Source: a virus
Taxonomy: Duplodnaviria > Heunggongvirae > Uroviricota > Caudoviricetes
IMG/VR virus record: IMGVR_UViG_2541047842_000004
Strand: one strand, 5' to 3'
DNA: 35,960 bases
Shown: positions 5,565-20,107 of the stretch, piece by piece
How positions within the stretch are numbered: the first letter of the stretch is position 1
Layout: each line of letters begins with the position of its first letter
Position numbers and translations under genes: made by a program
Notes under the pieces: generated by a model
Database searches by the model: none
What the model was told of the DNA's origin: nothing
Seen by the model: only the letters and a program-made list of their open reading frames with translations

Positions 5565-7271
<1,707 letters not shown>

Positions 7272-14602: not shown

Positions 14603-14739
14603 TGTTTGAGTTTTATATGGCAGAACGTCTTCGCCACCGCTGGGTGCGTCTGCGCTTATATCGTTTCCCCGGTTCTGTTTTGACCGATTACCGAATACTG
14701 AAGAATTACGCCAAAACACTGACAGGAGCAGGAGTATGA
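14599..14739 (+). CDS. ylcG: YlcG-like small protein
   Basis: Hand-translated 46-aa [49 protein letters not shown], overlapping the rusA stop; resembles DLP12 YlcG as recalled. Confidence 0.6.
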
Positions 14740-14824
14740 AGTCAGAGATAACAATCAACTAATACTGTTTTGCTGATTTTTGCTTGTAATTGGCGTTCTG
14801 GTCTGATTTTTGTGGAGTAAGTTG

Positions 14825-15202
14825 ATGCGTGATATTCAGATGGTTCTTGAGCGTTGGGGAGCGTGGGCGGCTAATAATCATGAAGATGTGACCTGGTCGT
14901 CCATTGCCGCCGGTTTTAAGGGATTAATTCCTTCAAAAGTAAAATCTCGCCCGCAATGTTGTGACGATGACGCGATGATCATTTGCGGGTGCATGGCCCG
15001 TCTGAAAAATAACAACAGCGATTTGCATGATTTGTTAGTGGACTATTATGTCGGCGGCATGACTTTTATGGCGCTTGCGCGTAAGCATGGTAGATCTGAT
15101 TGTTGGATTGGCAGGATGCTCCAAAAAGCTGAGGGCGTAGTGGAGGGCATGCTGATGGTGTTGGATCTCAGATTGGAGATGGATGCTGATTGTTTGAGAT
15201 AA
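14825..15202 (+). CDS. Q: Late-gene antiterminator Q (phage 82 / DLP12 QuuD type)
   Basis: 125-aa product from ATG 14825: [60 protein letters not shown]...; resembles QuuD/Q82 as recalled; followed by a terminator. Confidence 0.85.
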
Positions 15203-15300
15203 TTAAAGGAAAAGTTGCTGTCTGGTTATCATTAGACTAATGTTTCAAATGTTAGAATCGCAACGTAGTTATGATCATATAACAGCTTGTTCCCTGATTT

Positions 15301-15330
15301 AGCCAGCCTCCCCAAAGGCTGGTTTTTTTT
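15301..15330 (+). terminator. tR'-like rho-independent terminator downstream of Q
   Basis: Hairpin AGCCAGCC-tccccaaa-GGCTGG followed by an 8-T run; in the position of lambdoid tR', where Q acts. Confidence 0.6.
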
Positions 15331-15358
15331 CTAATAAGTATCAATCCGGTTAGGTATT

Positions 15359-15883
15359 TTATTGTTTGACCCATAATAGTTCATTGACATTGAATCCCAA
15401 TTTTTGAGCAGTACGCACATAGTCTGCTTTTACATTATCTGGAATAGTTGGAGTCCGTGCCAGAATCCATAGGTATTCTCTGTTCGGACCACTGACAAGA
15501 GCATACTTATACTCATCATCCAGTTTGATTACATTATAGCCACCATAGAAGGGGCCAAAAAACGAAACCTTCAACGCTGCAGTTGTATTATCTCCTGTAA
15601 AGTATGCTTTACCTTCGCTCTCGCTCCATTTGTTTTTCGTTGGGTCATATCCACGATTAAGTACACTAATCCCTCCGTCGTTCCGTTTCCCATAAGTGGC
15701 GCTGACCTGTTCCAGACCACGTTCAAATCGGTTCTCAAGCCGAGCTATTTCATACCATTTTCCGAGGTAGCGGTTGGTGTCAAAATTTGTAATCGGCTGC
15801 ACACCTTTAGGTGGTGTCGGGGCCTTACATGCTATCAGAGTGAAAGAGAGTGCAATGCCAGTCAACACAGGCCATAACTTCAT
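15359..15883 (-). CDS. blc: Bacterial lipocalin (Blc-like outer-membrane lipoprotein)
   Basis: 174-aa product with a lipoprotein signal peptide and lipobox (LIAC) and lipocalin motifs (GKWYEIARLENRFERG, YFTGDNTTAALKVSFFGPFYGGYNVI); resembles E. coli Blc. Confidence 0.85.
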   Translation of the reverse strand: MKLWPVLTGIALSFTLIACKAPTPPKGVQPITNFDTNRYLGKWYEIARLENRFERGLEQVSATYGKRNDGGISVLNRGYDPTKNKWSESEGKAYFTGDNTTAALKVSFFGPFYGGYNVIKLDDEYKYALVSGPNREYLWILARTPTIPDNVKADYVRTAQKLGFNVNELLWVKQ

Positions 15884-16075
15884 AATATATCCTGTACTTT
15901 TGATAGTTGAGAGTAAGTATTAAAGATAGATGATTACTACCGATCACCTAAAGAACTTTCCTACTATATTAGGAATAGTCCATAACAAAAAAATTGTCAG
16001 TGATGACGGCAGAAAGGCAGTTTAGGTCGTGTACTACACTGTTAACCTGTTAATGAATTAGTCAAGGGGTAGGCA

Positions 16076-17035
16076 ATGATAAAAAAACCTGTCGTTGGGA
16101 TCAGTGGTTGTTTGGCCGGTTCTTCTGTCCGTTTTGATGGTGGTCACAAAAGAGCTAGCTTTTTAATGGACAAATTACTGGAATGGGTAACATTCAAACC
16201 AGTATGTCCGGAAATGGCTATAGGGCTTCCAGTTCCGCGTCCTGCTCTACGTCTTGTTCGCTCGGCGCAAGGAAATATACGGATGTGTTTCAGCCACGAC
16301 CAGAATGAGGATGTTACAGAGAAAATGACAGAGTTTAGTCGTTCTTATCTTGACAAATTAAAGGATGTATCGGGATTTGTGGTTTGTGCAAAATCTCCTA
16401 GCTGTGGTATGGAACGCGTGCGTGTATATGATGAAAATGGTAATCGTGGTCGTAAAGATGGAGTGGGACTATTTACGAGCACGTTGATGGAAAGGTTTTC
16501 CTGGCTACCGGTTGAAGAGGATGGGCGACTACATGATCCAGTGCTTCGTGAAAACTTTGTTGAAAGAGTATTTGCTTTACATGAGCTCAATCATCTTTAT
16601 AAAGCGAAATTATCAAGAAGGGAATTATTAGCTTTTCATAGCCGTTATAAGCTTCAGTTGTTGGCGCATAGCCAGGCCGGTTATAAAGAGATGGGGCCAT
16701 TTGTGGCTGCAATACATGAGTGGGCAGACCTTGAATCATACTTTGAGGTGTATCGTGAGAAGCTGATGGCGATTCTCAGAAAACCTGCATCACGTAAAAA
16801 TCACACGAATGTGCTGATGCATATACAGGGATATTTTAGTAACTGCTTAAATACACGTCAGCGTAAAGAGTTGAGCGATGTTATACTTAACTATCGAGCT
16901 GGCACGCTACCTCTTCTTGCGCCATTAACTTTGCTGAAGCATTACTTGGCAGAGTATCCTGATGATTATTTGCTTATACAGAATTACTTCCACCCCTATC
17001 CTGATGAACTGGCTCTAAGACTCTTGGTGAACTAG
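16076..17035 (+). CDS. DUF523 (TudS-like Cys-rich domain) fused to DUF1722 (YbgA-like) protein
   Basis: 319-aa product; N-terminal conserved cysteines (GISGCLAG..., PVCPEMAIGLP..., CAKSPSCGMERV) and a C-terminal YbgA-like region (…FHSRYKLQLLAHSQ…HTNVLMHIQGYF…). Domain assignment is by recollection. Confidence 0.75.
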   Translation: MIKKPVVGISGCLAGSSVRFDGGHKRASFLMDKLLEWVTFKPVCPEMAIGLPVPRPALRLVRSAQGNIRMCFSHDQNEDVTEKMTEFSRSYLDKLKDVSGFVVCAKSPSCGMERVRVYDENGNRGRKDGVGLFTSTLMERFSWLPVEEDGRLHDPVLRENFVERVFALHELNHLYKAKLSRRELLAFHSRYKLQLLAHSQAGYKEMGPFVAAIHEWADLESYFEVYREKLMAILRKPASRKNHTNVLMHIQGYFSNCLNTRQRKELSDVILNYRAGTLPLLAPLTLLKHYLAEYPDDYLLIQNYFHPYPDELALRLLVN

Positions 17036-17344
17036 GCGTTTGGAATGCACCAACAAGATGATTTTCTCCTTAGAGAATGTTTACAATCGTAAAAACTTCA
17101 CTATGATATCTATAGTTGTACAGTTTGTAAAAAAATTCGGTTCATGCTTAAGGTAATGTTAATATGTTAATTAATGATTAATAATCAAGCAAGCCAAAAA
17201 TAGTTCTGTTTAATCTAGTATTACATAAATATTTTAAAGAAAATATCAAAGTTCATGATGATATAATGAGATTTTTCTCATTGAAAATATGGCAATTTTA
17301 ATATTTCCACCTATACTTACTTAACTCAAATCTAATTATGTCAG

Positions 17345-18085
17345 GTGGATGGTATGCCATGCATATGTTCTATCATTTTGGTTTTGAACTCGTTTGATAT
17401 CCGGCTTGGTAAAGAAAAAATCTCTCTAAAAAAAGGAAGTGTTGTTGCTATAGAATACAATTTAAAAGTTTTCTTTTCTTCAAATAAAGATAATATAATG
17501 ATCGTGGATATTGAAGAGAAAACAGTTAATGACTTCTTTAAAAACAATACACTCTCACCTTTTTCTGTAAGAAGATTTTATTCAGCATACTTGATAGTAA
17601 ACTGTACAGACTATTCATTGTTAAAGAACTTGATAGGTTGCTTGAATTGTGATGGTGAAACTACGGCTGTAGTTAAAAATTCAATATTATTTGCATGTCT
17701 TGCTATTTTATCCTCGGAAAAAATGTTTCAGAGTTTTTTGTTTGGGTGTCTTAATAGTTTAGGAAGCAAAGTTAAGGCTATTATTCACTCGGACATATCT
17801 GCAGCATGGAGACTTTGTGATATTTCTTCAAGACTATGTCTGAGTGAAAGTTTGTTAAAAAGAAAACTAAAACACGAAGGCTTATCATTTAGCAAATTAA
17901 TTCTTGAAGAACGAATGGTGATGGCTGAAAGGTTATTAAGCTACAATTTCTATCCTGTTGGGAAAGTTGCTAAAATATGTGGTTATGAAAGCGCGTCATA
18001 TTTTATAAGTGTTTTCAGAAGATATTTTGGTGTTCCCCCCCATGAATATTCATCAAGATTTTTTTTAGAAAAAGGCAAGATGTAA
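17345..18085 (+). CDS. AraC/XylS-family transcriptional regulator (AppY/EnvY/Rns-like), start uncertain
   Basis: C-terminal AraC-type double HTH (…LCLSESLLKRKLKHEGLSFSKLILEERMVMAERLL… KVAKICGYESASYFISVFRRYFGVPPHEY); very AT-rich gene preceded by ~300 bp of AT-rich non-coding DNA. Confidence 0.75.
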   Translation: MDGMPCICSIILVLNSFDIRLGKEKISLKKGSVVAIEYNLKVFFSSNKDNIMIVDIEEKTVNDFFKNNTLSPFSVRRFYSAYLIVNCTDYSLLKNLIGCLNCDGETTAVVKNSILFACLAILSSEKMFQSFLFGCLNSLGSKVKAIIHSDISAAWRLCDISSRLCLSESLLKRKLKHEGLSFSKLILEERMVMAERLLSYNFYPVGKVAKICGYESASYFISVFRRYFGVPPHEYSSRFFLEKGKM

Positions 18086-18252
18086 CGTGATGCGTTTTGA
18101 TGATTTTGTAATTTTCATATTTGATGATTATATGATGCTTTCAGCTACGCCAGAATAATCGCTGGCGTTTTTCTTTTCTAATGTAACTTCTGTATCTTTC
18201 CCTCTTTCATTCCAAACCGTGTACACCATCCGTTATTCGCGGAGGTGAGGCT

Positions 18253-18468
18253 ATGAAATCCATGGACAAGTTAACAACGGGCATTGCCTACGGCACCTCT
18301 GCAGGCAGTGCTGGCTACTGGTTTTTACAGTGGCTTGATCAGGTCAGTCCGTCACAGTGGGCGGCGATTGGAGTGCTTGGAAGCCTTGTGTTGGGTTTTC
18401 TCACTTATCTGACAAACCTTTATTTCAAGATTAAAGAAGATAAGCGTAAGGCTGCGAGAGGTGAATAA
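18253..18468 (+). CDS. S: Holin, phage-21-type pinholin (class II) with dual-start motif
   Basis: 71-aa product [71 protein letters not shown] with Met1 and Met4 starts and two TM segments; resembles S21. Confidence 0.9.
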
Positions 18469-18965
18469 TGTCGCCATCATTACGCAAGGCTGTAGCAGCT
18501 GCTATTGGTGGTGGGGCTGTTGCCATAGCGTCTGTGCTCATCACTGGTCCGAGTGGTGACGATGGTCTGGAAGGTGTCAGCTACATACCATATAAAGATA
18601 TTGTTGGTGTATGGACTGTATGTCACGGGCATACAGGAAAAGACATCATGCTCGGTAAAACGTATACCAAAGCAGAATGCAAAGCACTCTTGAATAAAGA
18701 CCTTGCCACTGTCGCCAGACAAATTAACCCGTACATCAAAGTCGATATACCGGAAACAACGCGCGGCGCTCTTTACTCATTCGTTTACAACGTGGGTGCT
18801 GGCAATTTCAGAACATCGACGCTTCTTCGCAAAATAAACCAGGGCGATATCAAAGGCGCATGTGATCAGTTACGTCGCTGGACATATGCTGGCGGTAAGC
18901 AATGGAAAGGTCTCATGACTCGTCGTGAGATTGAGCGTGAAATCTGTTTGTGGGGTCAGCAATGA
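18468..18965 (+). CDS. R: SAR endolysin (lysozyme with N-terminal signal-anchor-release domain)
   Basis: 165-aa protein with a Gly/Ala-rich weakly hydrophobic N-terminus ([20 protein letters not shown]) followed by a lysozyme-like domain; resembles R21; start overlaps the holin stop. Confidence 0.9.
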
Positions 18966-19454: not shown

Positions 19455-19748
19455 TTATTGTGAGCAATAGACACGCGCTTCCAGCGGAGTATAAATGCCT
19501 AAAGTAATAAAACCGAGCAATCCATTTACGAATGTTTGCTGGGTTTCTGTTTTAACAACATTTTCTGCGCCGCCACAAATTTTGGCTGCATCAACAGTTT
19601 TCTCCTGTCCAATTCCCGAAACGAAGAAGTGATGGGTGATGGTTTCCTTTGGTGTTACTGCTGTCGGTTTGTTTCCAACAGTAAACGTCTGTTGAGCACA
19701 TCCTGTAATAAGCATTGCCAGAGCGGCAGAAAACAACATTTTTTTCAT
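19455..19748 (-). CDS. bor: Bor lipoprotein (lysogenic-conversion serum-resistance factor)
   Basis: 97-aa product from MKKMLFSAALAMLITGCAQQTFTVGNKPTAVTPKETITHHFFVSGIGQEKTVDAAKICGG...; matches lambda Bor; lipobox ITGC. Confidence 0.9.
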   Translation of the reverse strand: MKKMLFSAALAMLITGCAQQTFTVGNKPTAVTPKETITHHFFVSGIGQEKTVDAAKICGGAENVVKTETQQTFVNGLLGFITLGIYTPLEARVYCSQ

Positions 19749-20107
19749 CTTATTATCCTGCATTGTTAAAAACGGCAGAATCCTATGTGACAACAATTAA
19801 ACGATAGTTAAATGGATTGATGAAAATTAAAACTATATAGGTGGATGCTCAGCCTATTGGAGGAGGGGGGCACTCAGAATCCTGTGGAATGAAATAAACC
19901 GCTCTTTCTGTCCATTACCCTTTTAGCTGCGCTGTATCGTCGCCGTATTCCCGCATTAACCATGACCGTAGCCCGACGGGGAATTCCTTCTGCGTGAGTG
20001 TGCGGGAATAATCAAAAACGATGCACACCGGGTTTTACTGTGCTGACAGACGCAGGGTTACCCTCATAGTCGCTTTTCCGGTGCGATGGTGGAAGAAACC
20101 GGGATGT

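Follow-up and report, generated by a model that had tools for sequence, protein, structure and literature searches.

A predicted PatE-family AraC/XylS regulator carried as a moron between Q and the holin gene of a lambda-like Escherichia coli prophage

What kind of protein is encoded when an AraC/XylS-type gene sits between the antiterminator and lysis genes of a lambda-like prophage, and on which genes, those of the phage or those of its host, does that protein act? The question is raised by a 35,960-nt stretch of Caudoviricetes DNA (IMG/VR record IMGVR_UViG_2541047842_000004; this whole stretch is hereafter called the window), a lambda-like prophage that is 99.997–100% identical to the icd-side prophage of E. 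coli 2017C-4173W12 (NZ_CP030768.1). An earlier note on this DNA had proposed a prophage-borne regulator of the AppY/Rns type behind a long AT-rich leader, and both the location beside icd and the homology found here agreed with a prophage-borne member of the AppY/GadX/Rns branch of the AraC/XylS family. As described below, the regulator gene is a moron, in which a promoter-like element, the gene and a terminator, the promoter and terminator being predicted, are placed between Q and the holin gene. Judged by sequence comparison, its product is an uncharacterised PatE-family relative in the clade of PatE, Psr, AppY, GadX/GadW and YdeO, and thus of a kind already known. PatE as the closest relative, the start at ATG 17354 and a predicted short 5' untranslated region (UTR) after a family-conserved promoter-like element sharpen the earlier reading, which was partly supported.

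Reading frame, fold and relatives of the regulator

The open frame on the plus strand, which starts at GTG 17345 or ATG 17354 and has its stop at 18085, was present as first described. Since the locus has A at 0.33 and T at 0.36 (p(stop) = 0.0825 per codon), 243 stop-free codons would arise by chance with a probability of about 8e-10, and the remaining five frames across the open reading frame (ORF) contained 7–24 stops apiece. The choice between the two start codons, left in doubt by the earlier note, could be settled in favor of ATG 17354. This codon lies 4 nt from the Shine-Dalgarno (SD) sequence AGGTGGA (5 nt from its AGGTGG core), a normal spacing, and GTG 17345 falls within that SD sequence. 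Neither the ATG nor the GG of the SD sequence varied in an alignment of seven loci, comprising the window and the 87, 75, 62, 54, 53 (PatE) and 37% loci, whose proteins match that of the window at 37–100% identity. The resulting N-terminus MPCICSIILVLNSF fits the motif M-x-x-x-C-S-[IV]-[IV] common to PatE, AppY, YdeO and GadW, and RefSeq places the start at the same codon (WP_001112170.1, 243 aa). Because of the spacing, the invariance, the motif and the RefSeq start, the translation start is assigned to ATG 17354.

The C-terminal AraC-type double helix-turn-helix (HTH) that had been read in this ORF, and whose absence on alignment had been named as a refutation, was found with Pfam scores above the cut-offs: HTH_18 over residues 161–237 of the 246-aa form (E 2.9e-15, 56.8 bits against a cut-off of 33.6) and HTH_AraC (E 1.7e-12, 47.6 bits against 26.6). 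An AlphaFold (AF2) model built on 14 family sequences (predicted local distance difference test, pLDDT, 84.4; predicted template modelling score, pTM, 0.72) showed a helical linker between an N-terminal domain rich in beta-strands and a DNA-binding domain of seven helices, the latter of which superimposed on the crystal structure of the GadX DNA-binding domain (3mkl) with a root-mean-square deviation (rmsd) of 1.2–1.5 Å and a template modelling (TM) score of 0.86–0.89. A sequence search of the Protein Data Bank (PDB) likewise retrieved the GadX DNA-binding domain (E 5.5e-21), followed by CsvR, Rns and ToxT, while the N-terminal domain alone gave zero PDB sequence matches, even at E 10. Searched as a whole chain with Foldseek, the model was best matched by CsvR, Rns and ToxT (E 2e-11 to 1e-7, 243–256 aligned columns), at TM scores of 0.45–0.55 and an rmsd of ~7 Å, the domain orientation being different or uncertain. 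The Rns/CfaD/CsvR/ToxT group thus shares the beta-rich N-terminal domain joined to an AraC DNA-binding domain and provides the best structural matches, its DNA-binding domain being detectable by sequence (E ~1e-18); overall, identity to the window regulator is ~20%. Fatty acids are contacted by H20/R75 in Rns and by K31/K230 in ToxT. The window protein is very probably a functional DNA-binding regulator.

As summarized in Table 1, PatE was the nearest characterised relative at 53%, and near-identity to a characterised regulator, which would have made the protein a known one, was not encountered. AppY, EnvY, YdeO and GadX, with which the earlier note had proposed a comparison, gave 26–30% full-length identity. 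The label AppY/Rns-like was accordingly right as to the branch and not as to the closest relative, AppY reaching 29–30% and Rns being detectable by sequence in its DNA-binding domain only (TM ~0.53 for the whole fold). The helix SESLLKRKLK is identical in the window protein and PatE. With YbcM of DLP12, the DNA-binding domain alone was aligned by pairwise BLASTP (28% over 98 residues).

Table 1. Identity (%) of the window regulator to related AraC-type proteins
Protein	Full length	N-terminal domain	DNA-binding domain
PatE (Sakai ECs_0287)	52–53	39	71
Probable PsrB (EDL933_RS10010)	40		
GadW	34	27	46
AppY	29–30	22	40
YdeO	28	19	42
EnvY	27	16	44
GadX	26	15	43
YbcM (DLP12; forced global alignment)	19	13	26

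The protein taken here as PatE is ECs_0287 of strain Sakai. patE has been identified as z0321 and placed in OI-8/CP-933H of enterohaemorrhagic E. coli (EHEC) O157:H7 (review PMC10877973), and since ECs_0287 is the sole AraC-type gene of Sakai Sp1, the counterpart of CP-933H/OI-8, it is probably PatE; the 52% tier of the regulator family is 98% identical to it. PatE resembles the window regulator in being prophage-borne, in its length (247 aa versus 243 aa), in the N-terminal M-x-x-x-C-S motif and in a conserved upstream TTGGCA-N17/18-TATACT element with an SD sequence. The differences are nevertheless clear. The regulon of PatE (gadE, gadBC and hdeAB up; the locus of enterocyte effacement down) is experimentally known, whereas that of the window regulator is predicted from homology; the two fall into separate 50%-identity clusters, the PatE-tier proteins P0014–P0016 grouping apart; and the window regulator is linked to blc and to a TudS/YbgA-like gene (hereafter ybgA). 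The genome sets also differ (699 for the window regulator and its close variant versus 657 for the PatE tier), and megablast with the PatE-tier gene found different genomes at 85–86% and none at the locus of the window.

Probable PsrB, a 237-aa AraC-type gene (L020:5275-5988) in an nleG-carrying EDL933 prophage, is similarly placed between an antiterminator-like gene and a holin gene in an effector-carrying lambdoid prophage, but is further from the window regulator than PatE. AppY shares the two-domain layout, the N-terminal motif and the nature of a prophage AraC/XylS activator; H-NS, RpoS and ArcA reportedly control its expression, and it feeds into acid resistance, but it lies at the far end of DLP12 beside ompT, outside the Q-to-S slot. 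GadW, GadX and YdeO belong to the same AraC sub-branch, with DNA-binding domains 42–46% identical to that of the window regulator, but are chromosomal rather than phage-borne and retain 15–27% identity in the N-terminal domain.

Among the NCBIfam equivalogs, the best matches were the YdeO model NF007407 over the full length (112.7 bits against a cut-off of 348, E 2e-32) and the GadX model NF007432 over the C-terminal half only (98.9 bits against 500, E 3e-28), and the regulator reached none of the equivalog cut-offs. Orthology to PatE, AppY, YdeO or GadX was rejected on these scores, on the identities (53% and 30%) and on the different loci. The family itself is narrow, its members coming from E. 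coli-type sources in a search of 5.8 billion proteins, with a few Salmonella records among sequenced phages; it falls into tiers at ~82, 75, 62, 52 and 36% protein identity, and nine 50%-cluster representatives only were found with E <1e-30. The 37% tier (P0023) was considered as Psr and rejected, as its 65 genomes are mainly porcine enterotoxigenic E. coli and bovine strains, not O157. psrA has been placed at z1789 in OI-50 by the review literature; annotation and tblastn revealed no AraC-type gene in Sakai Sp6 (L014–L015) or EDL933 CP-933N/OI-50 (L016). A 'PatE' of strain Nissle 1917 (CIW80_12240), for which a 2025 preprint describes acid protection on overexpression, was not mappable and was not used as evidence; in NZ_CP022686.1 (L017–L018), RS12240 is bcsZ, and the AraC-type genes within ~30 kb are only gadW and gadX.

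The Q-to-holin slot, occurrence and selection

The genes around the regulator are arranged in the order rusA, ylcG, Q, a tR'-like terminator, blc, ybgA, the AraC-type gene, a terminator, holin, lysozyme, Rz and bor/iss, and the backbone of DLP12 mirrors this arrangement with nmpC filling its Q-to-holin slot. Flanks were read for six loci, and in each of them the regulator gene occupied the Q-to-holin position as far as the contigs reach, behind antiterminators that span three Pfam families (PF06530, PF03589 and PF06323). Neither blc nor ybgA is found in the 62% and 54% tiers, where the regulator gene comes directly after Q at a distance of ~200–240 nt, and in the 37% tier it again follows the antiterminator directly without these genes, the contig ending before any holin gene. 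The short 75% contig begins inside the cassette and shows the ybgA and holin flanks only. The genes blc and ybgA occur only in the 100/87/75% tiers. A clean tR'-type hairpin stands ahead of the regulator promoter element at one locus (L010), and since a degenerate copy of it is still recognisable upstream of PatE, the sequence suggests that PatE came from the same post-Q slot. The terminator at 18147–18168 recurs in the 87% copy, minus one base in the 3' arm of its stem.

Identical DNA was found in 110 of the 5426 complete E. coli genomes; 11 induced phages that have been sequenced (the Lambda_ev series, 1H12 and Lambda_2G7a) carry it too, and a variant of 87% nucleotide identity (82% protein identity) occurred in ~575 further genomes; taken together, the two were present in 699 genomes (~13%). 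In these ~575 genomes, the variant belongs to a heavily deleted prophage adjoining ybhC (as in NZ_CP029741.1, 4066056-4080796). Replication and structural genes have been lost from this remnant, integrase, gam and tail survive as pseudogenes, and trkG has been kept, as has an intact set of Q, blc, ybgA, regulator and lysis genes. This intact cassette in a decayed prophage looks like domestication.

The ratio of non-synonymous to synonymous substitution rates (dN/dS) of the regulator was 0.26, 0.23 and 0.19 against the 87%, 75% and 62% copies, respectively. In the three comparisons with unsaturated synonymous sites, it was 0.08–0.14 in the DNA-binding domain versus 0.28–0.33 in the N-terminal domain (0.13 and 0.32 against the 87% copy). 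Because of these low ratios and of a frame that remains intact in ~680 genomes, decayed prophages included, a decaying relic is ruled out, and the substitution pattern indicates purifying selection. The difference between the domains fits a DNA-binding specificity that is conserved while the sensing/oligomerisation domain diversifies.

Upstream DNA and expression of the regulator gene

The extreme AT-richness that had been noted for the ORF and the DNA ahead of it was plainly confirmed: at scales of 318, 732 and 1050 nt, GC content across the 35,960 bp is lowest at the regulator locus. The GC content is 26.7% in the intergenic region 17036–17353 and 31.3% in the coding sequence (CDS; GC3 0.26), compared with 50.5% for the window, and the regulator with its upstream region (30%) differs likewise from the Q and holin/lysozyme genes (47–48%). 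Across the 1050 bp, AT amounts to 70%, and the TpA density is 0.116 against 0.042 window-wide (2.8-fold). By its base composition, the regulator gene is clearly marked as horizontally acquired. The small ORFs in the intergenic region are 38 aa and shorter; a 51-aa ORF called in the longer spacer of the 75% tier has its counterpart absent from the window.

Close to the start codon, all seven aligned loci carry a proximal promoter-like element, which in the distant tiers, Sakai ECs_0287 included, takes the form TTGGCA-N17/18-TATACT. Its invariant columns are T17290, G17292, A17295, A17313–A17315 and T17318, and in the window its extended −10 C-TATACT-TA at 17311–17319 (CTATACTTA) occurs as a single exact copy. 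From this element, a transcription start site at ~17324 and a 5' UTR of ~30 nt are predicted, and the site is reasonably likely to be the main promoter in the lysogen. The consensus of promoters preferred by sigma-S is about CTATACTTAA, and the −10 region CTATACTTA resembles such an extended −10. This likeness would fit the RpoS-linked rise of PatE in stationary phase described in the review (PMC10877973).

Since the family-wide proximal element implies a 5' UTR of ~30 nt, most of the 300 bp ahead of the gene is probably AT-rich upstream DNA rather than a transcribed leader; of the ~300-bp AT-rich leader first envisaged, the AT-richness thus holds and the nature of a leader probably does not. 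The fold of the short 5' UTR was unremarkable (z = −0.88) and thus supports neither an RNA thermometer nor a riboswitch, and an Rfam scan of 14700–18600 detected no RNA family in the upstream region.

Further upstream, the spacer is indel-rich and poorly conserved in its middle between tiers. Against the 87% copy, this diverged spacer contains two perfectly conserved islands, namely TTTACAATCGTAAAAACT-CACTATGATA, which corresponds to a sigma-70-like site at 17080–17107 (10/12 consensus), and TTTCCACCTATACTTAC upstream of the regulator. The distal 30-nt block is without a single change in the 87% and 75% tiers, although the DNA on either side has diverged, and is present only where the regulator follows ybgA. 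It coincides with a near-palindrome at 17080–17131 (TTTACAA...TTGTAAA), in which mirror-image sigma-70-like sites are seen on the plus strand (17080–17107) and on the minus strand (17131–17103), and which may act as a promoter in both directions or as an operator to which a dimeric protein binds. The other direct and inverted repeats of the upstream region are short, as expected in AT-rich DNA, and none but this one coincides with a conserved block.

DNA of such AT-rich composition is expected to be bound by H-NS in xenogeneic silencing. From the AT and TpA content, silencing of the locus by H-NS is plausible, and we consider its occupancy by H-NS quite likely.

Candidate targets, alternative readings and neighbouring genes

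PatE and PsrB have been described to activate gadE/hdeA and acid resistance (review PMC10877973), and AppY, a prophage AraC regulator that is itself controlled by H-NS and RpoS, contributes to acid-resistance system AR2 and is pleiotropic (PMC10057817). PatE, probable PsrB and AppY are thus all reported to regulate host rather than phage genes, and the characterised members of the sub-clade, PatE, PsrB, AppY, YdeO, GadX and GadW, converge on gadE/hdeAB (PMC10877973; PMC10057817). Based on these relationships, we propose that in the lysogen the gene would be held low through H-NS-type silencing of its 70%-AT DNA and would be transcribed from its own proximal promoter (17289–17317), and that the protein would bind AT-rich host promoters via its two HTH motifs and activate them. 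The most likely targets would be the gadE/hdeAB acid-fitness regulon, because the six relatives named above all converge there. In lambdoid late operons, Q-modified polymerase passes terminators upon induction. By analogy, the terminators at 15301–15324 and 18147–18168 would be passed by Q-modified RNA polymerase that starts a short way downstream of Q, and we infer that the regulator would then be expressed late in the lytic cycle together with the lysis genes, like stx in the same slot. An action mainly on host genes appears probable; control of host acid resistance, as argued from homology, is a tentative assignment that falls a little short of probable when the acid-resistance regulon is specified. 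The explanation as a whole, i.e. a self-contained moron regulator acting on the host with gadE/hdeAB as likely targets, is the one that we lean towards with modest confidence.

Several observations weigh against this explanation. ECs_0287 and EDL933_RS10010 were assigned as PatE and PsrB, respectively, by position and not by locus tag, and at 53% identity to PatE overall and 39% in the N-terminal domain, the signal and even the targets of the window regulator could differ. In PHROGs, the protein matches over its full length a family labelled as of unknown function (phrog_1450, E 7.5e-109), and nothing relevant was found in the literature on the protein accessions, the Lambda_ev phages or the cassette. 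Promoter-like sites in the upstream region were not enriched over shuffled sequences (12 found versus 11.3 expected), and the case for the promoter consequently rests on conservation; there, TATACTT is shared by every tier, but −13C is confined to the 100/87/75% tiers. As for silencing, matches to the high-affinity H-NS motif (TCGATAAATT-like, up to 2 mismatches) numbered 0 in 17036–18085 versus 29 window-wide, and the A-tracts of the locus showed no clear phasing, so that the supposed hallmark of H-NS silencing is borne out by composition and not by motif or phasing.

The same relationships would also accommodate a host regulator that responds to another signal through its diverged N-terminal domain and controls a regulon other than acid resistance, such as genes for adhesins/fimbriae, biofilm, anaerobic growth or starvation. 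The N-terminal identities, 39% to PatE and 15–27% to the K-12 paralogues, point in this direction, as do the pleiotropy of AppY and the fold, whose nearest counterparts CsvR, Rns and ToxT are fatty-acid-binding activators of pilus and virulence genes. The target-setting DNA-binding domain, however, is 71% identical to that of PatE with an identical first recognition-type helix, and every characterised member of the sub-clade touches gadE/hdeAB; a non-acid regulon is thus considered unlikely, though it deserves to be kept in view. It is quite improbable, in our estimation, that the Rns/ToxT-like N-terminal domain senses a lipid-like ligand, possibly linked to Blc, and that a late burst of the protein reprograms the stress or surface regulons of the host or of neighbouring lysogens; if true, such a ligand-sensing late burst would make the protein a 'late-expressed host reprogrammer' with a logic analogous to Stx release. 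About equally improbable is a local role, in which the protein controls the co-carried blc and ybgA genes in the classic arrangement of an AraC regulator beside its operon. The three genes do travel together in the 100%, 87% and 75% tiers, the DNA separating ybgA from the regulator holds a conserved near-palindromic block, and no terminator was found between the two genes. As a dedicated controller of blc and ybgA, the regulator is nevertheless disfavored, because the 62%, 54% and 37% tiers and the PatE locus carry it without them, the gene following Q or standing alone; moreover, the element conserved in all tiers is the proximal promoter-like site of the regulator and not one near blc or ybgA.

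The position directly upstream of the holin gene in a Q-dependent late operon, seen in the six loci with flanks read, might instead indicate control of phage functions, namely lysis timing, late expression or the lysis-lysogeny decision. But the stretch between Q and S is the standard site of lysogenic-conversion cargo, occupied in DLP12 by nmpC; the gene has stayed intact in a remnant prophage stripped of replication and structural genes; its base composition sets it apart from the phage backbone; and its relatives PatE, PsrB and AppY act on host genes. Such control is therefore very improbable. Hardly credible is a silent, functionless passenger that has simply not yet degraded. Extreme AT-richness suggests strong silencing, and neither annotation nor literature was found; yet dN/dS is 0.13–0.32 over the tiers at dS values of 0.36 to >1, the frame is kept in ~680 genomes including those with decayed prophages, and the SD sequence, start codon and promoter-like element are conserved. 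The preferred explanation hence remains the self-contained moron regulator that acts on the host.

AppY, PatE and PsrA/B represent a known phage route to the rewiring of stress and virulence regulons in E. coli, and here a nameless protein, together with its 87% variant, is present in ~13% of the complete E. coli genomes, many of them human clinical isolates, its gene being carried by inducible phages from infant gut isolates. Should it activate acid resistance, E. coli outside EHEC would possess a widespread fitness factor for gastric passage that phages can transmit. Carrier phages such as Lambda_2G7a and 1H12 would provide a clean isogenic test system. A simple rule for finding and comparing PatE-like regulators follows from their common place between Q, which is of three unrelated types, and the holin gene, combined with the conserved promoter element.

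The coordinates of the features are collected in Table 2. The hairpin at 15301–15334 is strong and is likely tR', and it probably serves also as the terminator of the convergent blc gene; an Rfam match over it, RF02278, was sub-threshold (26 bits against 50) and looks like hairpin similarity only. Both blc and ybgA are of unknown function in PHROGs, and their dN/dS values (0.07 and 0.11, respectively) indicate purifying selection. PADLOC gave no defence-system match for the three cassette proteins.

Table 2. Coordinates of the regulator gene, its presumed control elements and its neighbours in the window
Feature	Coordinates	Strand	Basis
Q antiterminator gene	14825..15202	+	Pfam Phage_antitermQ, E 2.5e-51; RefSeq 'antiterminator Q family protein'; 87% nucleotide identity to DLP12 quuD
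tR'-like intrinsic terminator right after Q	15301..15334	+	9-bp stem, 5 GC pairs, T-run
Blc lipocalin lipoprotein gene	15359..15883	-	Pfam Lipocalin_2, E 2e-43; NCBIfam Blc, 315.5 bits against cut-off 267
TudS (2-thiouracil desulfurase) and DUF1722/YbgA fusion gene, 319 aa	16076..17035	+	PF04463, E 3.6e-40; PF08349, E 1.3e-40
AT-rich upstream/intergenic region, candidate H-NS-bound regulatory DNA	17036..17288	+	Composition, TpA density
Distal sigma-70-like site TTTACA-16-TATGAT, candidate for an upstream promoter or an operator	17080..17107	+	10/12 consensus
Proximal promoter-like element	17289..17319	+	−35 ATGGCA 17289–17294, 17-nt spacer, −10 TATACT 17312–17317; 9/12
Shine-Dalgarno AGGTGGA	17343..17349	+	Sequence; GG invariant in seven loci
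AraC/XylS-family regulator CDS, 243 aa	17354..18085	+	WP_001112170.1; phrog_1450; dN/dS 0.26 against 87% copy
N-terminal beta-rich regulatory/dimerisation domain and helical linker, residues 1–135	17354..17758	+	AF2 model; fold matches
C-terminal AraC-type DNA-binding domain, two HTH, residues 136–237	17759..18064	+	Pfam; GadX 3mkl, E 5.5e-21
Intrinsic terminator closing the moron unit	18147..18178	+	7-bp stem, 5 GC pairs, T-run
Holin gene, downstream edge of the moron slot	18253..18468	+	Pfam Phage_holin_2_1, E 3e-35

On the 3' side of the lysis genes, a bor homologue on the minus strand (19455–19796) is annotated by RefSeq as Iss, the increased serum survival lipoprotein, a lysogenic-conversion gene. 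At 6077–7271, a complete IS5 (1195 bp, 99.7% identical to IS5B of K-12) flanked by a TTAG target duplication disrupts the sieB-equivalent superinfection-exclusion gene, and this insertion is the sole difference between the window and the prophage in NZ_CP030768.1.

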